Shown here piece after piece: positions 5,210 through 50,309 of a stretch of 54,184 bases of DNA. This DNA is from Minisyncoccia bacterium (lineage in GTDB: Bacteria > Patescibacteriota > Minisyncoccia > UBA6257), in assembly GCA_049699995.1 (NCBI GenBank), contig JBNAWD010000038.1:1-54184 (forward strand), in the 5' to 3' direction. Each line of letters starts with the position of its first letter. Position 1 is the first letter of the stretch. The notes beneath the pieces are model-generated. The model had not been told where the DNA came from. It did no database searches and worked only from the letters and a program-made list of their open reading frames with translations. The position numbers and the translations under genes were made by a program.

Positions 5210-5239
5210 TTGACTTTTATTAGAAAAAAATTCTAAAAT
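5210..5239 (+). promoter_or_regulatory. Candidate sigma-70 promoter for ackA (TTGACT-18-TAAAAT)
   Basis: TTGACT lies at 5210-5215 and TAAAAT at 5234-5239, 24 nt upstream of the ackA ATG. Confidence 0.3.
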
Positions 5240-5263: not shown

Positions 5264-6382
5264 ATGAACACTCCCTTAATTTTAGTTTTAAACTCCGGCT
5301 CCTCTTCTTTAAAATATTCTCTTTTTAAAAATGGAGAAAAAATTTTCGATGGACTGAAAGAAAACATTGGATTAAAAACTGGCGAAAAAAATCATCAAAT
5401 TGCTTTAGAGAAAACCTTTAAAGAAATCCAAGAAAAAGGAATAGTGAAAAGCCTAAAAGAGATTAAATACATCGGTCATCGAGTAGTCCATGGAGGAGAA
5501 ATTTTTAAAAAAACTACCCTTATTAATAGTAAGAATTTAGAAAAATTAAAAAGTATTTCTTTTTTGGCTCCGTTACATAATCCTTTTAATGTTCTAGGAA
5601 TAGAATTTTGTTTGAAAAATTTACCTTGGGCAAAAAATTATGCTGTTTTTGATACCGAATTTTATTCCTCTTTAAAAGAAGAGGCTTATTTATATGCTCT
5701 TCCTGATGAGTTTTATCGGAAATATAAGATTAGAAGATATGGTTTTCATGGAATTTCCCACAATTATGTATCATTGATGGCAGAAAAAATTTTAAAAAAG
5801 AAAATAAAAAAATTAATTACTTGCCATTTGGGAGCGGGAAGTTCAATCACAGCCATTTTAAATGGTCAGCCGATTGATACTTCGATGGGTTTTACTCCTT
5901 TGGAAGGATTAATTATGGAAACTCGTTGCGGAAATATTGATCCTTCTATTCCCCTTTATTTAATTTCTAACTATAATTTTAAAGCGGAAGAATTGGACAA
6001 AATCTTAAACAAACAATCAGGGTTTATCGGAATTTGTGGCTTAAGAGATTTTCGAGAAATTTTAAAAATGGAAACAGAAAAAGCAAAATTGTGTTATCAA
6101 ATGTATTTAAGAAGCGTAGTAAAATATATTGGAGCTTATATTAGTCTTTTAAATGGCGTTGAAGCTATTGTTTTTACTGCCGGGATTGGCGAGGGTTCGG
6201 CAAAATTCAGGGAAGATGTTTTAAAGCATTTTCAATATTTAGGGATTAAAATTGATAAAAAGAAAAATTATGGCCAAAAAAATATAATTTCCAAAAAAGA
6301 TTCAAAAGTAAAGGTATTGGTTATTCATACCGATGAAGCCTTGATGGTTTGCCAAAAAATTTTAAACCTCATTAAAAAATAA
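5264..6382 (+). CDS. ackA: Acetate kinase
   Basis: The motifs are LVLNSGSSSLKYSLF, GHRVVHGG, YGFHGISH and FTAGIGE. Confidence 0.95.
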   Translation: MNTPLILVLNSGSSSLKYSLFKNGEKIFDGLKENIGLKTGEKNHQIALEKTFKEIQEKGIVKSLKEIKYIGHRVVHGGEIFKKTTLINSKNLEKLKSISFLAPLHNPFNVLGIEFCLKNLPWAKNYAVFDTEFYSSLKEEAYLYALPDEFYRKYKIRRYGFHGISHNYVSLMAEKILKKKIKKLITCHLGAGSSITAILNGQPIDTSMGFTPLEGLIMETRCGNIDPSIPLYLISNYNFKAEELDKILNKQSGFIGICGLRDFREILKMETEKAKLCYQMYLRSVVKYIGAYISLLNGVEAIVFTAGIGEGSAKFREDVLKHFQYLGIKIDKKKNYGQKNIISKKDSKVKVLVIHTDEALMVCQKILNLIKK

Positions 6383-6393
6383 TTCAAAAAACA

Positions 6394-7392
6394 ATGAATA
6401 TAATTGAAAATATTGAAAAAGAATTATTATCTTCTTCTCCCTTAAAAATAATCTTTCCAGAAGGCGAAGAAGAAAGAATATTAAAAGCAATCAAAGAAAT
6501 AGTTTCTCAAAAAATCTGCCAACCAATCCTTATAGGAAAAAAAGAAAAAATTCTATCTAATTTAGACGAAGATTTAAAAGATAAAATAGAAATTATTGAA
6601 CCGGAAAAATCAGAAAAATTAGAAACATACGCAAAAATATTTTCAGAATCAGAAAAAATATCTTTAGAAATTGCCAAAAATATAATTCTTCATCCCCTCT
6701 TTTTTGGCGCCTTATCTTTAAAAAATAATGATGTTGATGGAATGATAGCGGGAGCTTTTTATACCTCCGGAGATGTTATTAGCGTAAGCAAAAAAATAAT
6801 TGGAATAAAGGAAGGATTTAAAATTGTTTCCAGTTTCTTTTTGATGACTAAAGAAAATTCGCCTTATGGAGAAAATGGTTCTTTAATTTTTGCTGATGCT
6901 TCAGTCAATATTAATCCAAATGAAGAAGAATTGGCAGAAATTGCTGTTATGACTGGTCAAACGGCAAAAACTCTTTTTCAATGGACACCAAGAATAGCCC
7001 TTCTATCTTTTTCCACCAAAGGAAGCGCTTCTCACCCTTTAGTTGATAAAGTAAAAAAAGCCACCGAATTAGCCAAACAAAAAAATCCAGATTTATTAAT
7101 TGATGGTGAATTACAAGGAGATGCTGCCTTAAGAATAGAAGTTGCCCAAAAGAAAATAAAAACCCCGTCAGAAGTAGCCGGCAAAGCCAATGTTTTAATT
7201 TTTCCCGATTTAAATTCAGCTAATATCTGTTATAAATTAGTTAATATTTTAGCCGAATACCAAGCCCTTGGCCCTATTCTCCAAGGCTTTCAAAAACCAA
7301 TCAGCGATCTCTCCCGGGGAGTTAAACCAGAAGAAATAGTCAATATTACAGCAATTATAAGTTATTGGGCAAAAAATTTAAACAAACAATGA
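6394..7392 (+). CDS. pta: Phosphate acetyltransferase (short Pta form)
   Basis: The motifs are LLSFSTKGSASHP, DGELQGDAAL and ANVLIFPDLNSANICYKL. It lies immediately downstream of ackA. Confidence 0.9.
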   Translation: MNIIENIEKELLSSSPLKIIFPEGEEERILKAIKEIVSQKICQPILIGKKEKILSNLDEDLKDKIEIIEPEKSEKLETYAKIFSESEKISLEIAKNIILHPLFFGALSLKNNDVDGMIAGAFYTSGDVISVSKKIIGIKEGFKIVSSFFLMTKENSPYGENGSLIFADASVNINPNEEELAEIAVMTGQTAKTLFQWTPRIALLSFSTKGSASHPLVDKVKKATELAKQKNPDLLIDGELQGDAALRIEVAQKKIKTPSEVAGKANVLIFPDLNSANICYKLVNILAEYQALGPILQGFQKPISDLSRGVKPEEIVNITAIISYWAKNLNKQ

Positions 7393-7784
7393 TTATAGGT
7401 GTTGGCATCGACCTGATAGAATTTCAGGATTTTTTAAGAATTTATAATTTTTTAAAAAACAGAAATCTTTTTAAATTTATTTTTTACAAGGAAGAATTAG
7501 TTTATATTCAAGACTATAAAAAATTAGCCGGGATTTGCGCTTTAAAAGAGGCAGTTTATAAAACAATATCTCCCTTTTTAAAAAGGGAGATATTGTTTAA
7601 AGACATTAAAATCATTAAGCTTGGAAAAGGACAAATTGTTGCCGAGATTCCGAAAGATTATTTTTTAAGAGATTACCAGAAGAAATTTTTTTTTAGAAAA
7701 AAATCAAAAATAAATTTCCATCTTTCTCTTTCTTATTCTCGAAATTCTGTCATTGCTATTTCGTTGGCAGAAATTAACCTTTAA
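7389..7784 (+). CDS. acpS: Holo-[acyl-carrier-protein] synthase (4'-phosphopantetheinyl transferase)
   Basis: It has the MIIGVGIDLIEF N-terminus typical of AcpS. I prefer the ATG at 7389, which forms an ATGA overlap with the pta stop, over the track start at 7365. Confidence 0.8.
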   Translation: MIIGVGIDLIEFQDFLRIYNFLKNRNLFKFIFYKEELVYIQDYKKLAGICALKEAVYKTISPFLKREILFKDIKIIKLGKGQIVAEIPKDYFLRDYQKKFFFRKKSKINFHLSLSYSRNSVIAISLAEINL

Positions 7785-8022
7785 GATTTTCCTCAATAAA
7801 ACTAACTAGATCTTTTATCGATTTTCCTCCTAAAACCTCTTCGGAGGGAATTTTTATTTTAAATTCTCCTTCTAATCCAGCCAATAAAGCAATAGTGTCC
7901 AAAGAACTGGCATGCAAATCTTCAACAAACTTTGTCTCTTCGGTAATCTCATTAATATCTTTCTTAAAAATTTCGGCAACAATTTGTTTAACCTTTTCCA
8001 ATGTGGATTTTTGTTCGGTCAT
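7774..8022 (-). CDS. Acyl carrier protein
   Basis: The 82-aa acidic four-helix-type sequence has the phosphopantetheine attachment context DLHASSLDTIALL. Its 3' end overlaps the acpS 3' end by 11 nt (convergent genes). Confidence 0.85.
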   Translation of the reverse strand: MTEQKSTLEKVKQIVAEIFKKDINEITEETKFVEDLHASSLDTIALLAGLEGEFKIKIPSEEVLGGKSIKDLVSFIEENLKG

Positions 8023-8049
8023 TTTTTTAAAATTTTACAATCTAGCCCT

Positions 8050-8445
8050 TTAAACCTTTTCAAAAACAACAATTTTTACCCCTTCAACCTCTTCGATTTT
8101 AGCGCGAACTTCTATTGGCATATTCTCGTTTCCTTTTCTGATAGCTTCAGGAGAAGAAACATCTACTCCTTCTATTTTAGTCAAGAAACAAGGTCCTTCT
8201 TCCAACTGAACAATGCCATAAGGAATCGGAGCATATTTAGTAAACTGTTTAGCAGGTAAAATGGTGCTGGAATACATTATTGCTTTCCCTTTACCAGAAA
8301 TTTCTTGCCATTGGATATTCCGACTATTACACTTTCGGCAAACAGTTAAAGGAGGAAAAGTAAGCGCTCCGCAGTCTAAACACTTGGCAATCATAATTTT
8401 CCCTTGGGCTAAATTGTCATACCATTTTTTGGCAATTGGCTCCAT
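8050..8445 (-). CDS. DUF35-family Zn-ribbon/OB-fold protein (thiolase partner)
   Basis: It has a C4 ribbon (CLDCG...CRKC) followed by an OB-fold-like C-terminus. I prefer the start MEPIAKKWY at 8445. The track ORF start at 8538 would overlap the thiolase gene by 68 nt. Confidence 0.8.
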   Translation of the reverse strand: MEPIAKKWYDNLAQGKIMIAKCLDCGALTFPPLTVCRKCNSRNIQWQEISGKGKAIMYSSTILPAKQFTKYAPIPYGIVQLEEGPCFLTKIEGVDVSSPEAIRKGNENMPIEVRAKIEEVEGVKIVVFEKV

Positions 8446-8470
8446 GTTTTTTATTTTATTATTTTTTAAT

Positions 8471-9742
8471 CTATTCGCCGGCCTTAAAAATAGTAACAGC
8501 CGAGTGCATGCCATAACCGTGATTATGCTGAGCAGCAATTTTAGGGAAAGGTTTAATTTGTCTTGGTCCAGCCTCTCCCCTCATTTGTTTTACTATTTCG
8601 TAAACCTCAAATCCGGCCGAAGCCTCAAAGGCATGACCACCTCCGTGTCGACCACCAGAGACATTTAATGGCTTCTTCCCGTCAAAAGCAAATTCCCCAT
8701 CTAAAGCATATTTCCACGCCTGACCTTGAGGAACATAACCGGCAACCTCTGGAAGGATTAATTGATAAATCTGCATACAATCGTGAACATACAAATAATC
8801 CAAATCCTCCGGCTTGATATTAGCCATCTTATAGGCCTCCTCAAATGCTCTGATATCTGCTTCCCAATAAGTAGGATCGTCTTCATACCAAGGATAATTA
8901 CTTACGCACCAATGGAAACCAATAATATCAACTGGCATATTCTTTGAATATTTCTCTGGTTCAGCAGAAACAATATAAGCAGTAGCTCCATCGGCTGTGT
9001 TTAAGGCGCTAAACAATCTTGTTGGCCAGGCAAAGAATGGGTTTTTACTTGATTGCCAGTAATCTTCCACTGAACTAAATCCTTCTCTCTGGGCTTCTTC
9101 TTCAAGGGTCCCCCTTTCATATAAAATTGCTTTCGGATTAGTGGCGGAATGCTTTCGAACAGTTTGATTAATCGCCATCATTACTCTATCCATCTCTTCA
9201 AAAGACAAGCCATTCTTCTTCATATAACCCATCGTGGGAAAGGCGCCATAAGCAGAAGCAATATCGTAAAAATGATGATAGGCATAAACATGGTCAACTC
9301 CATAATCTGTCCATTCCCATAAAGTAGCCGCATCAATTGGCTGGCGATCTAAAGGAAAATTCTTTTTAGGAGCGGAGGATAAAATTTCACCAGCCACCAC
9401 CAAAACATTTCTATATTTTCCAGACATTACCATTTGCCAAGCAATGCCTAAACCAGTATTAGTGGTGGAACAAGCGGTATCAAAGTGAAAGCCACCCTTA
9501 AACCTTAAACCTAACCAATCTCCCAAAAGAGTGGAATGAGAGTAAATCTGGGAAGTATGAGAAAGCATATTGCCCACAATAAAAGCATCAATTTCATCGG
9601 GAGCAATCCCAGCGTCAGCCATTGCCTCAAAAGCAGCTTCCGCTACCATTTCCTGAAAAGTTTTATTTTTAAGTTCCGAGTTTTCCAACACACTTCCAAA
9701 TTTAGTTGAACCAACCCCAATAATAGAAGCTCTTTTTGCCAT
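8471..9742 (-). CDS. Thiolase-superfamily condensing enzyme, SCP-x/archaeal acetoacetyl-CoA thiolase-like
   Basis: The nucleophile context is FDTACSTTNTG and the C-terminal active-site region is NVSGGRHGGGHAFEASAG. The 423-aa gene is followed directly by the DUF35 gene, the usual pairing. Confidence 0.85.
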   Translation of the reverse strand: MAKRASIIGVGSTKFGSVLENSELKNKTFQEMVAEAAFEAMADAGIAPDEIDAFIVGNMLSHTSQIYSHSTLLGDWLGLRFKGGFHFDTACSTTNTGLGIAWQMVMSGKYRNVLVVAGEILSSAPKKNFPLDRQPIDAATLWEWTDYGVDHVYAYHHFYDIASAYGAFPTMGYMKKNGLSFEEMDRVMMAINQTVRKHSATNPKAILYERGTLEEEAQREGFSSVEDYWQSSKNPFFAWPTRLFSALNTADGATAYIVSAEPEKYSKNMPVDIIGFHWCVSNYPWYEDDPTYWEADIRAFEEAYKMANIKPEDLDYLYVHDCMQIYQLILPEVAGYVPQGQAWKYALDGEFAFDGKKPLNVSGGRHGGGHAFEASAGFEVYEIVKQMRGEAGPRQIKPFPKIAAQHNHGYGMHSAVTIFKAGE

Positions 9743-9797: not shown

Positions 9798-9820
9798 ATA
9801 GGGGCTCGACCAACCCCTAT
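9798..9820 (-). terminator. Hairpin after the SpeH-like gene (ATAGGGG-N9-CCCCTAT)
   Basis: A 7-bp stem overlaps the stop codon region and is followed on the minus strand by AATTTTT. A perfect TATAAT (9795-9800, minus) directly abuts it and may be the -10 box for the thiolase operon. Confidence 0.4.
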
Positions 9821-10191
9821 CTAATTAACACTCTCTTTTTGACTTTTTTTGCCTCAAAAAATTTTTTTGTAAATTCAACCGCCTTTTCTGCATCAAAGGT
9901 TTTGCAAGAGAACAAATTGATATAAGCCCGATGCCAAAGTTCAGAAAAATGGCCAGAAACCAAACTGGATTCGATTAACTGAACAAAAGAATAACCGGCA
10001 GCGTAATCCAAATGAAGAGCGAATCTTTCAACAATTGCTTTTTTATATTTTTTCACTTTTATCACCTGACAAATTTTATCTATATATTCTAAAATTGCTT
10101 TCTTTGAACAAATTTTTTCCGGATGGCAATCGTATAAATCCATTATCAGTTCCTGGCCAAATATTTTTTTATTTTCTTTCTTCGAACTCAT
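9817..10191 (-). CDS. S-adenosylmethionine decarboxylase-like pyruvoyl proenzyme (SpeH family, divergent)
   Basis: ELIMDLYDC and QLIESSLVSGHFSE align to the ...ESH.S.HTWPE self-cleavage region of class 1 AdoMetDC. The downstream Cys is present (LFSCKTF). The HTWPE motif is degenerate here (GHFSE). Confidence 0.6.
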   Translation of the reverse strand: MSSKKENKKIFGQELIMDLYDCHPEKICSKKAILEYIDKICQVIKVKKYKKAIVERFALHLDYAAGYSFVQLIESSLVSGHFSELWHRAYINLFSCKTFDAEKAVEFTKKFFEAKKVKKRVLIR

Positions 10192-10263
10192 CTTGAAAAT
10201 AATTATTTTAATTTTTTATTTTAATTTTAATTTTTTATTTTTTCGACCTTTTAATATTTTATT

Positions 10264-10722
10264 TTATTCTCCTGAATAACCAACCGGCAATAAAGATATT
10301 GGTCGCCAATCATCTGGGACTTTTAAAATTTCTTTTATTTTTTCTTCCTCAAAAGCTCCAACCCAGCAAGCTGATAAGCCTAAACTTACTGCCTCTAACC
10401 AAGCATAAGCGCAAGCAATAGTGGCATCCTGTAAAGAATAAAGATTTCTCCCTCTTTCGCCATAAACTTTTTCTGATTTTTCAGGTAAAGCAAAAAAGAC
10501 AAATACTACAGGCGCCTGAGAAATAAATCTTTGATTAAAGGAAACTTTTGATAATTTTTCTTTAAGGTCTTTTTCTTTGATTATTAACACCTCTCTCGCC
10601 TTTAAATTCCCAGCGGAAGGAGAAGATTCGATAACCTTTAGAATTTCCTCTATTTTTTCTTTTTCAATTTCCTCCTCTAAAAAATTTCTAACTGATTTTC
10701 TTTTTTTAAACAAAGGGTTCAT
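10264..10722 (-). CDS. Nitroreductase family protein
   Basis: FKKRKSVRNF is the N-terminal nitroreductase signature, and the protein ends in SACWVGAF...LPVGY. I prefer the start MNPLFKKRKS at 10722 over 10764. Confidence 0.8.
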   Translation of the reverse strand: MNPLFKKRKSVRNFLEEEIEKEKIEEILKVIESSPSAGNLKAREVLIIKEKDLKEKLSKVSFNQRFISQAPVVFVFFALPEKSEKVYGERGRNLYSLQDATIACAYAWLEAVSLGLSACWVGAFEEEKIKEILKVPDDWRPISLLPVGYSGE

Positions 10723-10821
10723 TAAAAAAATTATATCATTTAGAGATTGTAAAGTAAATGTCAAATATTTGACTTTTTTGAAAATTCCCTATAGATTTTA
10801 AGAAAATATTTCAAAAAAATT

Positions 10822-21244: not shown

Positions 21245-21934
21245 TTAGGGTTCTAAAGTAGAATTTTTGAAAATTTTTATTTTATTCTGGTTTAAAGATT
21301 TAAGCCAATCATAGGAAGCTTTCTTGTAGCTTTGAGATCCATTAAAAAATTTAAGCAAAAAGTCTTTACGAATAACCGAAGGAAAATTTTTTTCTCCAAT
21401 ATAATCCAAAAAACTTGACCAGCGGTATTTATTTAAAAAACGAATAGCTTTTTGATAATCTCTTAATTCCCCTTTTCGCCATTCGGGAAACTTTAAATCT
21501 AATGGATTGAAATGAATATAATAAGGAAGATGAATAAAATGAGCTTCTTCTTTTATTAAGATTGATTTATATTTTCCCTCAAAAAGAGTGCCTTTTCTTT
21601 GATATTTTTGATTAAAATATTTAACATAACCAACATCTAATTTTTGCATAAATAAAGAAATAGCCCCCTCTTTCAAGGGTATTAATAAAAGATGATAATG
21701 GTTAGGCATTAAACAAAAAGCCAAAATTTCAACTAACAATTCTCTGCGCTCTTTTTCTTGGTTAAATTTAAAATCCGAGAGAAAGTTTTTTTGAAAATAA
21801 AAATTATTATTTGGAGCTGGCTTCTCGTCATTAAATTCAAATAAATTATGAATAAACCTTAAATAATCTCTCTCGTCAAGGAAAATCTTTCTTTGATCCA
21901 CTCCTCTATTTAAAATATGATAAATACCTTCCAT
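21245..21934 (-). CDS. IS200-like HUH/Y1 transposase, RAYT-like (REP-associated tyrosine transposase)
   Basis: It has the HUH motif CLMPNHYHLLL and the catalytic-Tyr helix PYYIHFNPL. It is 229 aa long and is flanked on both sides by the same palindrome. Confidence 0.8.
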   Translation of the reverse strand: MEGIYHILNRGVDQRKIFLDERDYLRFIHNLFEFNDEKPAPNNNFYFQKNFLSDFKFNQEKERRELLVEILAFCLMPNHYHLLLIPLKEGAISLFMQKLDVGYVKYFNQKYQRKGTLFEGKYKSILIKEEAHFIHLPYYIHFNPLDLKFPEWRKGELRDYQKAIRFLNKYRWSSFLDYIGEKNFPSVIRKDFLLKFFNGSQSYKKASYDWLKSLNQNKIKIFKNSTLEP

Positions 21935-22016
21935 AAAATAAAAAGACAGCGGGGAAATTAAAATTTCTATATATTTTTAAAAAATATTTAAAATTTTGTC
22001 AATAGCTCTAGTTTTA

Positions 22017-22058
22017 TTATCGACCTCGGAGGTCAATATTGACCTCCGAGGTCGATAA
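22017..22058. repeat. Perfect 42-nt palindrome (REP-like doublet), copy 2
   Basis: TTATCGACCTCGGAGGTCAAT|ATTGACCTCCGAGGTCGATAA differs from copy 1 only at the outermost base pair. Confidence 0.9.
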
Positions 22059-22070
22059 ATTAAAGAACTA

Positions 22071-22097
22071 AAAAACCGGCCGAAAGGCCGGTTTTTT
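22071..22097 (-). terminator. Rho-independent terminator (bidirectional shape) after the surface-protein gene
   Basis: AAAAA-CCGGCC-GAAA-GGCCGG-TTTTTT lies 21 nt downstream of the stop at 22118. Confidence 0.8.
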
Positions 22098-22117
22098 AGT
22101 AACCCGCAAGGAAGGGT

Positions 22118-24010
22118 TTACTGACCAGTAAAGTAAGTCTGGCCAGTCTTCAAGGTATCAATACCCCAAGTCTGGCTAACAGCACCAGTGGAAGTAGCGG
22201 AAGTGTTCCAGCCAATAGAAGCTAATCTAACTTCATAGTATCCGGCATCGCTAGAGCCAGTTAATTTGAAGGTAGCATTAAATTCACAAGTAGCAGTGGA
22301 ACCAGAAGTAATTCTCCAGAACTTATTAGTGCTATCTTCAGTGGCATTAGAACAAGTCCAAGAGGCAGAAGAAGTAGAGGGAGTAACCGAGCTTCCATTC
22401 TTGTAGATGGCCTTTGTTATAGAGGTAGTAGAATTGTCGCTGGTAGGAATATAGATATCGCCACCATTAGCAGTTACAGTAAAGACAATCTTAGCAGTAC
22501 CTAAATCAGCAACAGTGGAAGAGGTAGAACCAGAAGCGGTCAAACTAGCATTGCTTAAGGCAAAGACTGGAGCCTTTAAGAATGGATAGAATCTTTCACT
22601 ATCAAGAGAAGTGCCGTCAGCAGTCTTGACATTGCTGTTGGTATCAATACCAGTCAAAGAAGGACCAGTGGTAGAAATTACAACATATTTGGTAGAGCCA
22701 CCAGCAAAGCTTGAACTCTGGGCAGCAATATTGACTTTAATTGACAAAGTCTTAGTTGTTCCAGCGGCAACCGGTAAGCTGAAGTTAGACCAAGAAACAG
22801 AACCATCATTACCAGACCAACTGGGAGCAGCAGAAGCTAACAAAGTTGATCCATCCCAAAGCTCAGCTGAGATAACATCCGAAGTAGCAAGACCAACGCC
22901 TTTAGTAATGGTCACACTACCAGAACTAAAGGTGACATCTAAATCTTTTACTTCGACATTGAATCTCATTATCTCTACTCTGGTAGCGCCAGAAGTGGAG
23001 ACAATAATATTTTGAGCTTTTGGATTATCAGTGGCGAGGCTGACATTAACATCCGCGCTAAGGGTAGTAGTAATCGTCAAACCAGTGCGAGAAACATCAC
23101 TACCACTGGCAACAGAGTAATTAATGCCAGCAGTATCAGTAAAGACTAATTGATCATACTCAATAGTAGCTCCCCAGGTATCATCTTGAACATCAGATAC
23201 TGGATTAGTCACTACAGTACCTTTAACAGTCAAAACTTTAGTGGAGTTATTAGGAACTACCCAGTTCAAACCAGTGAAATTAAAGGTGTAATTGTCGGCA
23301 AAAGTATTCTCAATGGCATTGGCGGAAGAAGGGACAATCTCAGCTAACAAGTTAGAGCCATCATAAAGAGAAAGTTTGCTGAAAGCGCCCCAAGGAAAAG
23401 CATCAGCCGCAGTGTGGTCAATAGTGACAGCTATCTTTTTAACAGTAATGTCTGAACCAGTGGCTTTAAACTGAGCAGCCACTAATTCATAAGTTTGACC
23501 ACCATATAAAGTGGTTTGAGCGTTAGAAACTGGATAGCTTGTAATGGATAAAGTTCCATAAGCAGGAGCAACAACTGTCGTGGTGGTAGTACCGGCACTG
23601 GTAGTCGTGGTAGTAACAGGAGTGCAGTAAAGTTCATTTAATTTGGCTCTAGTCAAAGGACCAACATAACCAGTCTGAGGAATACCATATTGCGCCTGGA
23701 ATCTTTGAACAGCAGCCTTGGTCAAAGGACCAAAATAGCCGCTAGTAGGAGTGACTCCTAAGATAATCTGTAGGTTTTTGACATCATTAGAAGTCAAGCC
23801 ATAGTAAAGATCCGTATTGAAGCAATAGGTTCCAGTGGTCTGTTGGCCTCCTTGTAAAGCGGCAATCTGTTGTTGTAATTGGGCAATAATACCCAATAAC
23901 TGTTGAATTTGAGCTTGAAGCTCTTGAACAGATTGGCCAAAAACCGGAGAAACTGCCATTGAAAGGGCAAAAATCCCGGTTAAAATTGAAGCTGTTAATT
24001 TCTTTCCCAT
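22118..24010 (-). CDS. Secreted S/T/A/G-rich surface protein with N-terminal coiled coil + peptidoglycan-binding domain (S-layer-like candidate)
   Basis: It has a signal peptide (LTASILTGIFALSMAVSPVFG), a coiled coil (QELQAQIQQLLGIIAQLQQQIAALQ) and PG_binding_1-like repeats (SGYFGPLTKAAVQRFQ...TGYVGPLTRAKL). A Thr-rich linker and about 480 aa of beta-rich, low-charge sequence follow. Confidence 0.75.
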   Translation of the reverse strand: MGKKLTASILTGIFALSMAVSPVFGQSVQELQAQIQQLLGIIAQLQQQIAALQGGQQTTGTYCFNTDLYYGLTSNDVKNLQIILGVTPTSGYFGPLTKAAVQRFQAQYGIPQTGYVGPLTRAKLNELYCTPVTTTTTSAGTTTTTVVAPAYGTLSITSYPVSNAQTTLYGGQTYELVAAQFKATGSDITVKKIAVTIDHTAADAFPWGAFSKLSLYDGSNLLAEIVPSSANAIENTFADNYTFNFTGLNWVVPNNSTKVLTVKGTVVTNPVSDVQDDTWGATIEYDQLVFTDTAGINYSVASGSDVSRTGLTITTTLSADVNVSLATDNPKAQNIIVSTSGATRVEIMRFNVEVKDLDVTFSSGSVTITKGVGLATSDVISAELWDGSTLLASAAPSWSGNDGSVSWSNFSLPVAAGTTKTLSIKVNIAAQSSSFAGGSTKYVVISTTGPSLTGIDTNSNVKTADGTSLDSERFYPFLKAPVFALSNASLTASGSTSSTVADLGTAKIVFTVTANGGDIYIPTSDNSTTSITKAIYKNGSSVTPSTSSASWTCSNATEDSTNKFWRITSGSTATCEFNATFKLTGSSDAGYYEVRLASIGWNTSATSTGAVSQTWGIDTLKTGQTYFTGQ

Positions 24011-25528: not shown

Positions 25529-26512
25529 TTATAAAGTTTTAGCTAATTGGTCAATAAAAATTCCAATTTTTTTGGGATCATGACGCAAAAGCGGTCCTTG
25601 TTTCAGCAAAGGATAAAAAATTACTTTCGGTTTTTCCCAACTTAACAATTCTTTTTTTGAGTATTTAACAAAGCTGGAGTTTTCTTTTTTATAAAGGTCT
25701 AAATATTTCTTTAGAGGTTTTCTAGAATTTATGACAAAATAATCAATTATCCCTTTTCCAAGGTATTTTTCAAGTATAGCATAAAAATCCTTGGCTGTAA
25801 AATTATTAGTTTCTCCGTATTTTGTCATAATATTACAAAAATAAATCTTTTTTGCTTTTGATTTTCTGACCGCCTCTTTAATTCCCTTTACCAAAAAATT
25901 AGGTAAAACGCTTGTATATAAATCACCAGGACCAATGATAATAATATCAGCAGACAAAATAGCCCTTATTGCTTCAGGATTGGCTTTTGCAGAAGGAGAT
26001 AGAAAAACCTTTTTAATCGCTAGACAAGGATTATGCTTGGGAACATCAATATTCGACTCGCCGATAATCAAATCATTGTTTTCTAATTTTGCCACTAAAC
26101 GAGTATTATCCAAAGAAACCGGAATAACCTCGCCTTTAATGCCTAAAATTTTTCCCGCTTCTTTAATTGCTTGATTGAAATCGCCAGTAATTCTTTCCAA
26201 AGCAGTAATAAATAAATTGCCAAAACTATGACCTTTTAAGGAAGAACCATTCTCAAAACGATAATTAAAAAGCTGGGCTAAAATTGAAGAGGAAGAGGAC
26301 AAAGCCGCTAAAGCTCGGCGGAGATCGCCCGGCGGCAAAATGCCAAATTCTCCTCTTAAAATTCCAGAAGAACCACCATCATCAGCAATTGAAACAATGG
26401 CAGAAAGATGATAAGGGTAATCTTTTAGACCATTTAAGACATTAAAAACTCCTGTCCCCCCGCCAATAACGACAATTCTTTTTTGTTGTTTTTCCTTTTT
26501 CTCTTTTCTCAA
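25529..26512 (-). CDS. YvcK/CofD-family protein (gluconeogenesis factor-like)
   Basis: The motifs are VVIGGGTGVFNVL, SIADDGGSSG, PPGDLRRAL and IIIGPGDLYTSVLPN. Confidence 0.85.
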   Translation of the reverse strand: MRKEKKEKQQKRIVVIGGGTGVFNVLNGLKDYPYHLSAIVSIADDGGSSGILRGEFGILPPGDLRRALAALSSSSSILAQLFNYRFENGSSLKGHSFGNLFITALERITGDFNQAIKEAGKILGIKGEVIPVSLDNTRLVAKLENNDLIIGESNIDVPKHNPCLAIKKVFLSPSAKANPEAIRAILSADIIIIGPGDLYTSVLPNFLVKGIKEAVRKSKAKKIYFCNIMTKYGETNNFTAKDFYAILEKYLGKGIIDYFVINSRKPLKKYLDLYKKENSSFVKYSKKELLSWEKPKVIFYPLLKQGPLLRHDPKKIGIFIDQLAKTL

Positions 26513-38998: not shown

Positions 38999-39652
38999 AT
39001 GAATTTTAATTTTGAAAAATTTTTATTTAAAAAAGGATTTCAAATCATTATTGGATTGGATGAAGCCGGCCGGGGACCTTTAGCCGGTCCTGTTTATGCG
39101 GGAGCAGTTTTAATCCGAAAGAAAGATTTAAAAAAACTAAAAAAATACAAAAAAGTTATTGAAGCTGTTAGGGATTCAAAAAGGTTAAAAGAAAACATTA
39201 GAAAAGAAATTTTTGATTTCTTTAATCAAGCAAAAGTTTTGTCATTTTCTTTTTCTTTTGTTTCGGAAAAAATTATTGACAAAATAAACATTGAAAGAGC
39301 AACAAAAAAAGCAATGAAAAATTGTTTAAAAAAATTTAATCTCCCTTTAAAATGTTTTAAAAAAACTGTGATTTTAATCGACGGCAATAAAATTTTGGAT
39401 GAAAATATTCCTATAAAGCAAATTCCTATTATCAAAGGAGATGATAAAATTTTTACTATCGCTTTAGCTTCTATTATTGCTAAAGTAAAAAGAGATGATA
39501 AAATGAAAAAATTATCTAAAAAATATCCTTTTTATAAATTTGAAATTCATAAAGGCTATCCAACAAAACTACATTTAGAATTATTAAAAAAATACGGTCC
39601 TTGTCAAATTCACCGAAAAACTTTTAATCCAATAAGATTTATTGATTTATGA
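38999..39652 (+). CDS. rnhB: Ribonuclease HII
   Basis: It has IIGLDEAGRGPLAGPV and a DSK motif. Confidence 0.9.
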   Translation: MNFNFEKFLFKKGFQIIIGLDEAGRGPLAGPVYAGAVLIRKKDLKKLKKYKKVIEAVRDSKRLKENIRKEIFDFFNQAKVLSFSFSFVSEKIIDKINIERATKKAMKNCLKKFNLPLKCFKKTVILIDGNKILDENIPIKQIPIIKGDDKIFTIALASIIAKVKRDDKMKKLSKKYPFYKFEIHKGYPTKLHLELLKKYGPCQIHRKTFNPIRFIDL

Positions 39653-40569
39653 AAAAACTTTTAGTAATTTTAGGGCCAACATCGTCTGGAAAATCAGATC
39701 TTGCAATTAAAATAGCCAAAAAATTTAAAGGAGAAATTATTTCCGCTGACTCTCGGCAAGTTTATATTGGAATGGATCTGGGAACTGGCAAAGTAAAAAA
39801 AGACAAGAATAAAAAGTCAAATTTTTATTATAGCCAAGGAATTCGTCATCATTTATTAGATGTTGTAAGCCCAAATAAATATTTTTCTGTTTACCAATAT
39901 CAAAAATTAGCAAAAAAGGCGATAAAAGATATTTTAAAGCGAAAAAAATTGCCAATTCTATGCGGAGGCACTGGCCTTTATATCTCTTCCGTTATTGAAA
40001 ATTGGCAATTTCTTAAAATAAAACCGGACTTTAAATTAAGGAAGAAATTGGAAAAATTATCCGCAAAAGAATTATTTCAAAAAATAAAAAAAATAGACCC
40101 AAAAAGGGCTAAAAATATCGATCCGAAAAACAAAAGGCGTTTAATCAGAGCAATAGAGATTGCTCTTCAATTAGGAAAAGTTCCGCCATTAGAAAAGAAA
40201 CCATTAAAAATGGATATTCTAATTTTAGGGATTAAAAAAGAGAGAGAAGAATTAAAAAAACTGATTAAAAAAAGATTAGAAAAGAGGTTGAAGGAAGGAA
40301 TGATTGAAGAAGTAAAAAAATTAAAAGAAAAAGGAGTTTCTAATGAAAGATTGGAAAGTTTTGGTCTAGAATATCGCTATATTAATCGCTATTTAGAAAG
40401 GAAAATAAACTTTGAAGAAATGAAAAAACAATTATTAAAAGCAATTATTGATTATGCCAAAAGACAAATGACTTGGTTTAAAAAAATGGAAAATGTTTAT
40501 TGGATTAAAGACGAAAAAGCAGCCTTAAAGTTAACAAAAAATTGGTTAAAAAATTCTACAAAGAATTAA
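39649..40569 (+). CDS. miaA: tRNA dimethylallyltransferase
   Basis: It has the P-loop GPTSSGKS and SADSRQVYIGMDLGTGK. Its start overlaps rnhB by 4 nt. Confidence 0.92.
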   Translation: MKKLLVILGPTSSGKSDLAIKIAKKFKGEIISADSRQVYIGMDLGTGKVKKDKNKKSNFYYSQGIRHHLLDVVSPNKYFSVYQYQKLAKKAIKDILKRKKLPILCGGTGLYISSVIENWQFLKIKPDFKLRKKLEKLSAKELFQKIKKIDPKRAKNIDPKNKRRLIRAIEIALQLGKVPPLEKKPLKMDILILGIKKEREELKKLIKKRLEKRLKEGMIEEVKKLKEKGVSNERLESFGLEYRYINRYLERKINFEEMKKQLLKAIIDYAKRQMTWFKKMENVYWIKDEKAALKLTKNWLKNSTKN

Positions 40570-48332: not shown

Positions 48333-50309
48333 TTACAATAAACCAACAATCAAAATTGCAACAATCGAAATTAACTTTATCAAAATATTCAAAGAGGGTC
48401 CGGCTGTATCTTTAAAAGGATCACCCACTGTATCGCCGATAACTGCCGCTTTGTGAGGTTCGGATTTTTTCCCGCCAAAATTCCCTTCTTCAATGTATTT
48501 TTTAGCATTATCCCAAGCTCCACCAGAATTAGCCATTACTAAGGCTAAAAGAAAGCCAGAAGAAATTGACCCGATTAATAACCCACCTAAAGATTCTTTT
48601 CCCAAAAGAAAGCCAACAATCACTGGCGAAATAATTGCCAACAAAGAAGGCAAAATCATTTCTTTTAAGGCAGCACCGGTGACAATTTCCACACATTTGC
48701 CATATTCTGCTTTGGCCTTTCCTTCTTTTAGACCGACAATTTCTTTAAATTGTCTTCTCACTTCTTCAACCACTTTATAAGCCGCTTTCCCAACTGCCTC
48801 CATCGAAAAAGCGGAAAACAAAAATGGCAATAAAGCGCCTATAAAAATTCCAAGAAAAACTTTAACATCAGCTAAATTTAAAATTGATAAATTAGCAATT
48901 TGAAGATAGCTTACTAATAGAGCAAAAGCAGTTAAGGCAGCAGAACCAATGGCAAAACCTTTTCCCATAGCGGCAGTAGTATTGCCAACGGCATCTAGTT
49001 TTTCTGCTTCTTTTCTAATCTCTTCTCCTAATTCTGCCATCTGAGCAATACCAGCAGCATTATCAGCTACCGGACCATAACAATCAATCGCCAAACAAAT
49101 AGCCAAAGTGGAAAGCATTCCCACTCCAGCCAAAGCAATACCATAAACACCTAAAATGTAATAAGCGCCTAAAATCGCCAAAGTAATAACAATAACTGGT
49201 ATAAAAGTACTCTTCATACCCAAAGACAAGCCACTGATAATATTAGTCGCTGCTCCTGCCTGGCAAGATTCTGCCAATTTCTTTGTTGGTGAATAAGAAC
49301 TGGAAGTATAGTATTGGCTAATAAAACCAATAATAACCCCGGAGACTAATCCCAACAGAACCGAGATAGTGATTTTATATTGAGAAATGAAAATAAATTT
49401 ATCCAAAAGTAAAGTAAAGATAATCATTAAAATAGTGGAAAGATAAGTCCCTTCATTAAAAACTTTTTGGGCGTCTTTTTTCTTGGAAAAAGTGATCCAA
49501 AAAATTCCAAAAAGACTAGAGAGTAAACCGATTACTCCTAAAAAGAGGGGGATAAAAATTGGATTAGATAGCAATCCTTTTGTGGCACTTTTTAAAGTTA
49601 CTGTCACGCCTAAAACCATTGCCGCAATAATTGATTCAACATAACTTTCAAATAAATCCGCTCCCATGCCAGCAACATCGCCAACATTATCTCCAACATT
49701 ATCAGCAATTACCGCTGCGTTTCGAGGGTCATCTTCCGGAATATCAGATTCTACTTTTCCTACTAAATCAGCGCCGACATCAGCTGCTTTTGTGTAAATT
49801 CCTCCTCCCACTCGAGCGAATAAGGCGACGGCAGAAGCACCAAAACCAAAGCCGTAAATAATTTGGGGATCCTTAATCAAAAAGTATAAAATCGCAACAC
49901 CTAAAAGGCCTAAACTAACAACCATTAACCCCATCACGCTACCGGCCTGAAAAGCAATATTTAAACCTTTTTTGGTTGATTCTTCTAATCCTTCGGCTAC
50001 TCGAGCATTGGCAGAGGTAGCCACTCTCATTCCAACATTACCGGCTAAAATAGAGAAGAAAGCTCCCAAAAGAAAAGATAAAGCAGTCAATTTATTAATA
50101 AAAAAGAAAAGAAGAAGAAAAACTAAAAGGGTAAAAATAGCAATTATTTTGTATTCTTTCATCAAGAAAGCGGAAGCGCCTTCTTTGATTGCCAAATTTA
50201 TTTCTTTGACTCTTAAATTTTTAATTTCTTTCTTTAAAATTTTATAAGAAAAGAAAAACGAGGCGAGAAAACCTAAGAGAATTAAAATAGAAGTTAAATA
50301 GTAGGGCAT
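48333..50309 (-). CDS. hppA: Membrane-bound ion-translocating pyrophosphatase (K+-dependent subtype by motif)
   Basis: The motifs are [29 protein letters not shown] and [20 protein letters not shown] has Ala rather than Lys in the GNTT(A/K)A position, which marks K+-dependent enzymes. Confidence 0.93.

Follow-up and report, generated by a model that had tools for sequence, protein, structure and literature searches.

The closest described systems to the locus reported here are thiolases that work together with a DUF35 protein. In the M. thermolithotrophicus thiolase/3-hydroxy-3-methylglutaryl-coenzyme A synthase (HMG-CoA synthase)/DUF35 complex (6esq/6et9), a thiolase of the SCP2/archaeal type stands next to a DUF35 protein made of a Zn-ribbon and an OB fold, and the complex uses coenzyme A (CoA) and is free of acyl carrier protein (ACP). 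In S. acidocaldarius, a thiolase/DUF35 core, present as multiple pairs per genome, docks other enzymes in a complex called ‘archaeal fatty acid synthase’ that is explicitly ACP-independent and CoA-based and that includes a ketoacyl-CoA reductase, a dehydratase and an enoyl reductase (bioRxiv 10.1101/2024.07.05.601840). Thiolase-fold and DUF35 subunits also occur together in PhlACB/MucABC and in the benzoylsuccinyl-CoA thiolase BbsAB, which have another third partner (the HMGS-like PhlA) or none, act on other substrates and involve no ACP, phosphotransacetylase (Pta) or acetate kinase (AckA). Here we analyze a 54,184-nt stretch (hereafter the window) from the metagenome-assembled genome (MAG) of a Minisyncoccia bacterium of the Patescibacteria/Candidate Phyla Radiation (CPR) (assembly GCA_049699995.1, contig JBNAWD010000038.1), in which a thiolase/DUF35 pair shares one locus with genes for an ACP, a holo-ACP synthase (AcpS), a Pta and an AckA.

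The genes of the locus, called from a listing of open reading frames (ORFs) and Pfam scans, are as follows.

5264-6382, plus strand: ackA, acetate kinase, 372 aa (Pfam Acetate_kinase, 415 bits)
6394-7392, plus strand: pta, short-form phosphotransacetylase of a divergent subfamily, 332 aa (Pfam PTA_PTB, 342 bits)
7389-7784, plus strand: acpS, divergent holo-ACP synthase, 131 aa (Pfam ACPS, 27.7 bits; cut-off 25)
7774-8022, minus strand: ACP, 82 aa (Pfam PP-binding, 44 bits)
8050-8445, minus strand: DUF35 protein with Zn-ribbon and OB fold, 131 aa (Pfam zf-ChsH2 and OB_ChsH2_C)
8471-9742, minus strand: thiolase, 423 aa (Pfam Thiolase_C_1 and Thiolase_N)

An initial annotation, made from the sequence alone, had called the same six genes, and the ORF listing and Pfam agree with all of its coordinates. 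The plus-strand genes ackA-pta-acpS converge on the minus-strand genes thiolase-DUF35-ACP, and the DUF35 gene starts 25 nt downstream of the thiolase gene. Both overlaps described earlier are present in the sequence: the acpS start codon overlaps the pta stop codon (ATGA, 7389-7392), and acpS and the ACP gene overlap tail to tail by 11 nt (7774-7784). A 3′-end overlap of 8-11 nt between convergent ACP and acpS genes recurs in several distant carriers of the locus (L007 9903-9913, L091 7724-7731), and no terminator-like site was found between the two genes in the window. Taken gene by gene, annotation of the locus is routine (Pfam; NCBI names).

Thiolase homologs were followed back to the contigs that encode them, 80 more loci came from scanning one genome for each GTDB species, and the six window proteins were mapped onto the loci by tblastn and iterated profile search; gene content was counted over 88 non-redundant loci carrying this thiolase family. 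All six genes lie within ~5 kb in 40 of the 88, in at least 10 gene orders. Five genes, with only ackA missing, are present in 11, all from bacterial lineages with larger genomes, while the thiolase-DUF35 pair stands alone in 26, mostly from aerobic Alpha- and Betaproteobacteria; the remaining loci with an ACP run into contig ends. Profile searches found the AcpS gene in 61 related loci, and the DUF35 gene is immediately downstream of the thiolase gene in every locus with enough flank. The association of the six genes is far beyond chance, being conserved across two domains with shuffled order. This is the co-occurrence across related genomes that the initial annotation had proposed as a check, and it supports the proposal made there that ACP, AcpS, DUF35 and thiolase are functionally linked to ackA-pta and not merely adjacent.

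Archaeal carriers comprise many Micrarchaeota and Woesearchaeota, Asgard MAGs (Sifarchaeum, Borrarchaeum, Promethearchaeota), Halodesulfurarchaeum and Hecatella, and bacterial carriers comprise Patescibacteria, Actinobacteria, Clostridia/Firmicutes, Syntrophomonadaceae, Chloroflexi, Desulfatiglandales (Deltaproteobacteria) and Spirochaetales. From the taxon labels, we take these to be mainly lineages known as anaerobes. Cultured carriers include Geosporobacter ferrireducens, Sinanaerobacter chloroacetimidivorans and Halodesulfurarchaeum. A CPR thiolase copy of 81% identity has an identical module arrangement and different flanking genes; near copies at 62-63% identity, DUF35, ACP, AcpS, Pta and AckA are all present with changed order or orientation, and the Halodesulfurarchaeum copy (thiolase 55% identity) has the module genes in another order. 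In the Woesearchaeota MAG GCA_964457955.1 (L009 7985-14874), thiolase-DUF35-ACP is followed by a second thiolase-DUF35 (a tandem duplication), then by an MscL gene and, on the opposite strand, by acpS-ackA-pta; a phage-type integrase is encoded ~3 kb beyond the module. An 18-kb contig from JGI metagenome 3300057026 (L093, 1-14846) holds four thiolase/DUF35 pairs that belong to different clades of the family, together with two ACP, two AcpS, two Pta and one AckA; a gene of the GTP cyclohydrolase FolE2 type sits in its middle. One module-bearing contig also holds methylamine methyltransferase genes.

All-against-all clustering of every ORF from 94 loci yielded no further conserved neighbor except an AraC-family regulator, which is divergently transcribed in 14 loci assigned to larger-genome bacterial lineages (for example L053 6780-7760, L060 6770-7813 and L044 6793-7764). 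Encoded ahead of the bacterial operons, the protein combines AraC_binding_2 and HTH_18 domains; its similarity to FeaR extends along the full length, with scores of 163-171 bits where the equivalog cut-off is 199. Knowing its ligand might point to the substrate of the module. FeaR-like AraC regulators usually control catabolic operons. HMG-CoA synthase, which the initial annotation had expected beside the genes in relatives if they served plain mevalonate entry, is not a conserved neighbor in the 88 loci and does not appear among the Pfam-annotated neighbors. Ketoreductase, dehydratase, enoyl reductase and thioesterase are also absent as conserved neighbors from the 88 loci, and fabD/H/F/G/Z/I were not found in any related neighborhood.

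Pairwise-identity matrices of the six proteins correlate across 39 loci with r = 0.54-0.91 (thiolase-DUF35 0.91, ACP-thiolase 0.78, ACP-Pta 0.78), which is consistent with inheritance and transfer of the six genes as a block. In a neighbor-joining tree, which carries no support values and is indicative only, the window sequence falls among other Patescibacteria, with Micrarchaeota adjacent. The best explanation of positions 5264-9742 is a single self-contained, horizontally mobile module organized around a private carrier protein. A plasmid search gave only two matches, neither of the ACP type, and hence no sign of travel on known plasmids. The labels of five GTDB representative MAGs (L012, L016, L022, L031 and L037; Saccharibacteria, Gammaproteobacteria, Methanosarcinales and Anaerolineales) conflict with placement of their modules in the tree among Patescibacteria/DPANN, and reflect either recent transfer or mis-binned contigs. 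In the literature, acpP is listed among genes horizontally acquired by Patescibacteria (PMC12455944).

Within the thiolase, Cys91 and Cys322 are invariant, and at least 90% of 33 homologs share H320, D321 and H370. A Foldseek search with its AlphaFold2 model (pLDDT 92.3) returned SCP2-thiolase, the P. furiosus and M. thermolithotrophicus thiolases, BbsB, PhlC and Ltp2, at 20-28% identity, and the best solved relatives include P. furiosus 7yvy and zebrafish SCP2-thiolase. These structure-level relatives bear out the earlier assignment to the SCP2/archaeal, DUF35-partnered type, and both features of that type are found here, namely the Cys/HDC/GH-His set and an adjacent DUF35 gene. The clade is unmodeled, since no NCBIfam thiolase model comes near its cut-off (the best gives 169.9 against 420). 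The enzyme seems to be a genuine thiolase and not an acyltransferase like PhlC, because it keeps Cys91, the HDC at 320-322 and His370, whereas enzymes of the PhlC/MucB type lack the HDxF motif (PMC12960953). Although the PhlACB/MucABC subunits are structural neighbors of the window pair, those systems differ from the module, which retains the HDC motif and has no HMGS-like gene linked to it.

The DUF35 protein has a four-Cys ribbon and an OB fold, and its best PDB match is 6esq_E, the DUF35 subunit of the M. thermolithotrophicus complex (E=7e-13). By analogy, it is presumed to be the scaffold partner of the thiolase, and in both systems a pantetheine-bound intermediate would presumably be channeled by DUF35 acting as a scaffold. 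The two also have in common the thiolase fold together with the HDC and GH motifs. The window thiolase is nevertheless only ~26% identical to 6et9 and falls outside the corresponding equivalog, with 126 bits against a cut-off of 600 for NF053570 (AcCoTHIOL_METTL). Where the mevalonate-entry complex has an HMG-CoA synthase and the S. acidocaldarius complex a reductase, a dehydratase and an enoyl reductase, none of these is linked to the module, whose partners are instead ACP, AcpS, Pta and AckA.

One clade of the thiolase family, at 42-45% identity, keeps DUF35 and has no ACP, AcpS or Pta nearby (L056, L062-L090 and L097). Its members are mostly aerobic Proteobacteria and include the Paracoccus ferrooxidans megaplasmid CP038202.1 (L097). 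In the neighbor-joining tree the clade is nested inside the ACP-linked family, which suggests a secondary loss of the carrier or a switch to CoA. It offers no substrate hints, as the loci hold the pair only, with no informative conserved neighbors; crude ORF calling in this high-GC DNA gave spurious antisense clusters.

The window ACP aligns end to end with T. thermophilus ACP 1x3o and scores just under the AcpP model cut-offs (TIGR00517, 65.0 against 70.45; NF002148, 67.4 against 71). Its attachment motif is DLHASSLD. The residue before the attachment Ser is Lys or Arg in 57 of 60 non-redundant family ACPs, whereas AcpP has Asp; the window ACP, with Ser at this position, is one of the three exceptions. 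It thus has neither the DSL motif nor the passing AcpP scores of a type II FAS (fatty acid synthase) carrier. The window AcpS lies below all NCBIfam AcpS cut-offs and is the weakest of the six gene calls, and its MIIGVGIDL (GxGxD) and ALKEAVYK (KEAxxK) motifs align with those of the solved H. pylori and S. aureus enzymes. Judged by these features, ACP and AcpS are a divergent, dedicated pair.

Firmicutes and Deltaproteobacteria are expected to have a type II FAS with its own ACP and AcpS, and in these groups (Geosporobacter and Sinanaerobacter among the Firmicutes) the module still brings its own ACP and AcpS. The altered Lys/Arg-Ser motif offers a reason why it should carry its own divergent AcpS even in bacteria expected to have a housekeeping one. 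Dedicated acetyl carriers with their own prosthetic-group loading are known from anaerobic catabolism, as the ACP subunits of citrate lyase and malonate decarboxylase. Those subunits belong to unrelated families and bear a 2′-(5′′-phosphoribosyl)-3′-dephospho-CoA group, in contrast to the module ACP, which is a PP-binding protein accompanied by an AcpS-type transferase. In archaea, ACP and AcpS are nearly absent (PMC3533463). Because the module comes with a separate ACP and AcpS even in bacteria where FAS II is expected, and also occurs in ACP-poor archaea, its ACP is very unlikely to be a carrier for fatty acid synthesis, and the non-lipid role that the initial annotation had offered as one alternative holds. 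Since the pair is found in archaea and as an extra copy in Firmicutes and Deltaproteobacteria, its membership of the module would be unchanged by any FAS II encoded elsewhere. Scans with Pfam, covering practically every other ORF of 90 aa or more, confirmed that fabD/H/F/G/Z/I are absent from the 54 kb, and found no plsX/Y, HMG-CoA synthase or mevalonate genes there.

The Pta differs from its canonical counterparts at residues that contact CoA (numbering of M. thermophila Pta, MtPta). The window protein barely passes TIGR00651 (312.7 against 311.2); it keeps S309 and R310, has Glu in place of both D316 and R87, lacks K90 through a deletion, and has Ser for R133, Gly for K140 and Val for C312. 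In the window Pta and all Ptas of such clusters, the catalytic S309 and R310 are conserved and position 316 is Asp or Glu. In 53 of 53 non-redundant cluster Ptas, K90 is missing through a deletion and the residue at 133 is not Arg but A, T, M, S, L, I or V; K140 is Gly in 52 of 53, and F301, S306 and A312 occur in nearly all of the 53. Solved Ptas keep R133 in 5 of 5 cases and K90 in 4 of 5, the fifth having Glu. In the structure of P. gingivalis Pta with acetyl-CoA, the equivalents of R87 and K90 bind the 3′-phosphate and that of R133 the β-phosphate, and mutation of R87 or R133 in MtPta mainly affects (raises) Km (PMC6461089). The contact set to the CoA 3′-phosphate and diphosphate that defines CoA-dependent Ptas (R87, K90, R133) is missing from the window protein, and the subfamily has lost conserved basic contacts to the nucleotide part of CoA.

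Among the best 150 Pta representatives from 1.8 billion proteins, 76 have the canonical R-K-R, 31 the cluster signature and 43 neither, many of the last with Lys at position 133. The closest canonical representative belongs to a plain ackA-pta pair with no ACP or thiolase. Compared with the Pta-AckA pathway, the module has a canonical AckA and a Pta of the same fold with the same catalytic Ser-Arg; the Pta subfamily differs in lacking the K90/R133 contacts, in the fixed G140, F301, S306 and A312, and in being tied to a carrier protein instead of forming a two-gene operon. Within the Pta superfamily, PlsX provides a precedent for moving an acyl group between an ACP thiol and phosphate. It is a weak relative of the window Pta (plsX model E=6e-6, 25.7 bits against a cut-off of 243), which is not a PlsX member: PlsX handles long-chain acyls for phospholipid synthesis, whereas the window protein is by sequence a bona fide short Pta.

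The AckA passes NCBIfam TIGR00016 (415 against a cut-off of 293), has T. maritima AckA 2iir as its best PDB match (E=7e-106), and is a canonical acetate kinase. Its HRV, LAPLHNP, GFHG and TPLEGL motifs are identical to those of M. thermophila AckA in an alignment to 1g99/1tuu, and we take them to be the acetate pocket and catalytic region (M. thermophila V93, L122, F179 and P232). With these pocket motifs kept, the end point of the module would be acetate/acetyl phosphate. We also considered activation of acetoacetate by AckA/Pta, through acetoacetyl phosphate to acetoacetyl-ACP in a closed acetoacetate fermentation, and dropped it because the AckA pocket motifs are fully canonical.

These parts lead us to propose, with a confidence that we put at about even, an ACP-centered module that would interconvert 3-oxoacyl/acetyl thioesters, acetyl phosphate and ATP. 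AcpS would load 4′-phosphopantetheine onto the ACP, and thiolase/DUF35 would form or cleave an acetoacetyl (3-oxoacyl) thioester at its C2–C3 bond, the ACP arm serving as thiol or acyl carrier. The Pta variant would move the acetyl group between the ACP thiol and phosphate, by chemistry as in PlsX, and AckA would couple acetyl phosphate to ATP. DUF35 would, if it behaves as in the archaeal complexes, hold the partners together, and the tethered intermediate would be channeled. As to direction, we slightly favor thiolysis to acetyl-ACP, then acetyl phosphate and ATP, as energy conservation in fermentative anaerobes; the reverse route, from acetate and ATP to acetoacetyl-ACP, is possible. Thiolysis is the favorable direction of the thiolase reaction, and it agrees with the mainly anaerobic carriers, with the FeaR-like regulator of the bacterial operons, whose presence hints at an inducible catabolic operon, and with the contig holding four thiolase/DUF35 pairs.

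Several observations weigh against this proposal. No ligase or CoA-transferase that could supply the 3-oxoacyl thioester is linked to the module and, if the module is anabolic, the fate of acetoacetyl-ACP is the missing piece. All characterized thiolase/DUF35 systems use CoA or free substrates, not ACP, and the thiolase-family clade of aerobic Proteobacteria works without ACP or Pta. The Pta signature is suggestive only and does not prove that ACP is used: 32 of the 53 cluster Ptas still have R87, and R133 contacts the β-phosphate, a group that holo-ACP retains. Moreover, two signature-bearing representative Ptas have neither ACP nor thiolase beside them on their short contigs (5.2 and 2.6 kb), which weakens the equation of the signature with ACP specificity. 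On the 5.2-kb contig (L098 1-2403, Logan SRR28305190), the signature Pta directly follows a gene for a thiamine pyrophosphate-dependent enzyme that resembles pyruvate oxidase/acetolactate synthase and is truncated where the contig ends. Members of the Pta subfamily may therefore exist outside the module and have other partners.

The same six proteins could instead serve biosynthesis, with AckA and Pta making acetyl-ACP and thiolase/DUF35 condensing two acetyls to an acetoacetyl-ACP primer for lipid, isoprenoid (with an ACP-dependent HMG synthase elsewhere) or polyketide-like synthesis. We regard this as rather unlikely, though the likeliest of the alternatives. The known archaeal thiolase/DUF35 complexes do condense, in mevalonate entry and in the S. 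acidocaldarius fatty acid synthase complex, and ACPs are mostly biosynthetic carriers; non-decarboxylative condensation is, however, thermodynamically uphill. A private carrier pool highly acetylated by acetyl phosphate would push the condensation and leave the CoA pool undisturbed. The module itself accounts for all inputs of such a route (acetate and ATP), the window genome needs isoprenoid units (MiaA, 39649-40569, identified by Pfam), and the several loci with multiple thiolase/DUF35 pairs could elongate stepwise; yet ketoreductase, dehydratase, enoyl reductase, HMG-CoA synthase and thioesterase are not among the conserved neighbors, and the divergent regulator beside the bacterial versions is of a usually catabolic kind. 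Furthermore, CPR/DPANN genomes generally lack downstream lipid pathways (PMC7242380). The Claisen-condensation direction suggested by the initial annotation is accordingly not established, with no reductase, dehydratase or HMG-CoA synthase alongside and a FeaR-like AraC regulator beside the bacterial versions.

We consider it improbable that the module harvests acyl groups independently of CoA, as PhlACB/MucABC do, in which case an acetyl group would pass from a free β-dicarbonyl onto the thiolase Cys, then to ACP, and through Pta/AckA yield ATP. Acetoacetate, a β-diketone or an acylated phenol are examples of such a donor. Such a route would explain both the lack of a linked ligase or CoA-transferase and the ligand-sensing FeaR-like regulator of the bacterial operons, and PhlC and MucB are structural relatives that have a DUF35 subunit and form acetyl-Cys without CoA. 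On the other hand, H320-D321-C322 is nearly invariant, as in true thiolases and unlike the PhlC/MucB-type enzymes without HDxF (PMC12960953), no HMGS-like third subunit is linked, and identity to PhlC is only ~24%.

Least probable of all is a chance grouping of ordinary parts, that is, a plain acetoacetyl-CoA/mevalonate entry pair and a housekeeping ACP/AcpS beside a normal fermentative ackA-pta, which the routine annotation of each gene alone and the passing of generic NCBIfam models by Pta and AckA might suggest, and which the neighborhood analysis largely refutes, as the six genes stay together across domains in shuffled order, ACP/AcpS otherwise almost never occur in archaea, Firmicutes and Deltaproteobacteria hold an extra ACP and AcpS in the operon despite an expected type II FAS, ACP, AcpS, Pta and thiolase all diverge from their housekeeping counterparts, no HMG-CoA synthase is nearby, and an assembly or binning artefact is implausible across more than 50 independent contigs that include complete chromosomes.

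Two candidate regulatory features flank the module in the window.

5210..5239, plus strand: candidate sigma-70-like promoter, TTGACT-18-TAAAAT, 10/12 matches, 25 nt before the ackA start
9798..9820, minus strand: terminator-like hairpin and T-run, ATAGGGGTTGGTCGAGCCCCTAT then AATTTTTAAT, between the S-adenosylmethionine (AdoMet) decarboxylase gene and the thiolase gene

The DNA here is AT-rich, and promoter-like matches are in no excess over shuffled sequence (25 found against 19.6 ± 5.0 expected), and the ackA promoter is for this reason a candidate only. The hairpin (9820-9798, minus strand) has 9 pairs, 4 of them GC, and directly follows the AdoMet decarboxylase gene (9817-10191). A TATAAT reported before the thiolase gene is indeed present at 9800-9795 (minus strand); as a promoter it is weak evidence, because it lies inside the terminator-like element, in the hairpin 3′ arm/tail, and such matches are no commoner than in shuffles. 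Directly upstream of the thiolase gene are genes of the AdoMet_dc and nitroreductase families (9817-10764, minus strand), which are not conserved beside the module elsewhere.

By Pfam, the remaining ORFs of the window are housekeeping and envelope genes of a CPR-type set, the former including aminoacyl-tRNA synthetases, DnaE, DnaB, NusG, L11, GroEL/ES, ComEC and sigma factors. The window also encodes a membrane H+-pyrophosphatase (48333-50309, minus strand, 884 bits) and a CofD/YvcK-family protein (25529-26512, minus strand). An IS200-like Y1 transposase ORF (21245-21934) adjoins the gene for a 630-aa PG_binding_1 protein, and positions 21245-24010, at 41.9% GC against ~29%, are the GC maximum of the window and may be a foreign insertion. 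GC is also raised at 8-10 kb (38.5% against ~29%); this we do not take as evidence of transfer, since strongly conserved genes in AT-rich genomes are often GC-richer. No tRNA genes or Rfam matches were found in the window.

A description of the six-gene set was not found in the full-text literature searched. Thiolase/DUF35 systems themselves are known, and what is new is such a system linked to ACP, Pta and AckA. Conceivably, though we hold it somewhat doubtful, the module represents an unrecognized form of carrier-protein-dependent substrate-level phosphorylation, or in reverse of ATP-driven C–C bond formation, in which ACP replaces CoA for both thiolase and Pta. If so, these would be the first ACP-dependent thiolase and the first ACP-dependent Pta, and the unit would have been traded horizontally among CPR, DPANN, Asgard and halophilic archaea and anaerobic bacteria. 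Thiolase/DUF35 biology would then extend from CoA to carrier proteins, and pathway engineering would gain an orthogonal ACP/AcpS pair (with the Lys-Ser motif) and a short cassette from acetate to acetoacetyl, or the reverse. The presence of the operon in the cultured Geosporobacter ferrireducens, Sinanaerobacter chloroacetimidivorans and Halodesulfurarchaeum makes the question directly testable.

The usual picture of CPR and DPANN organisms is one of cells that cannot make fatty acids and have no ACP-dependent enzymes (PMC7242380). The module, if our reading is right, would give ACP/AcpS their first widespread role in archaea and would be a core energy or carbon module of ultra-small symbionts. 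The label ‘ackA-pta fermentation’ in many CPR/DPANN reconstructions may accordingly sit on a Pta that is not the standard CoA enzyme. That a compact ACP module is kept in tiny genomes, and across both domains, implies an important piece of central metabolism that has gone unannotated.

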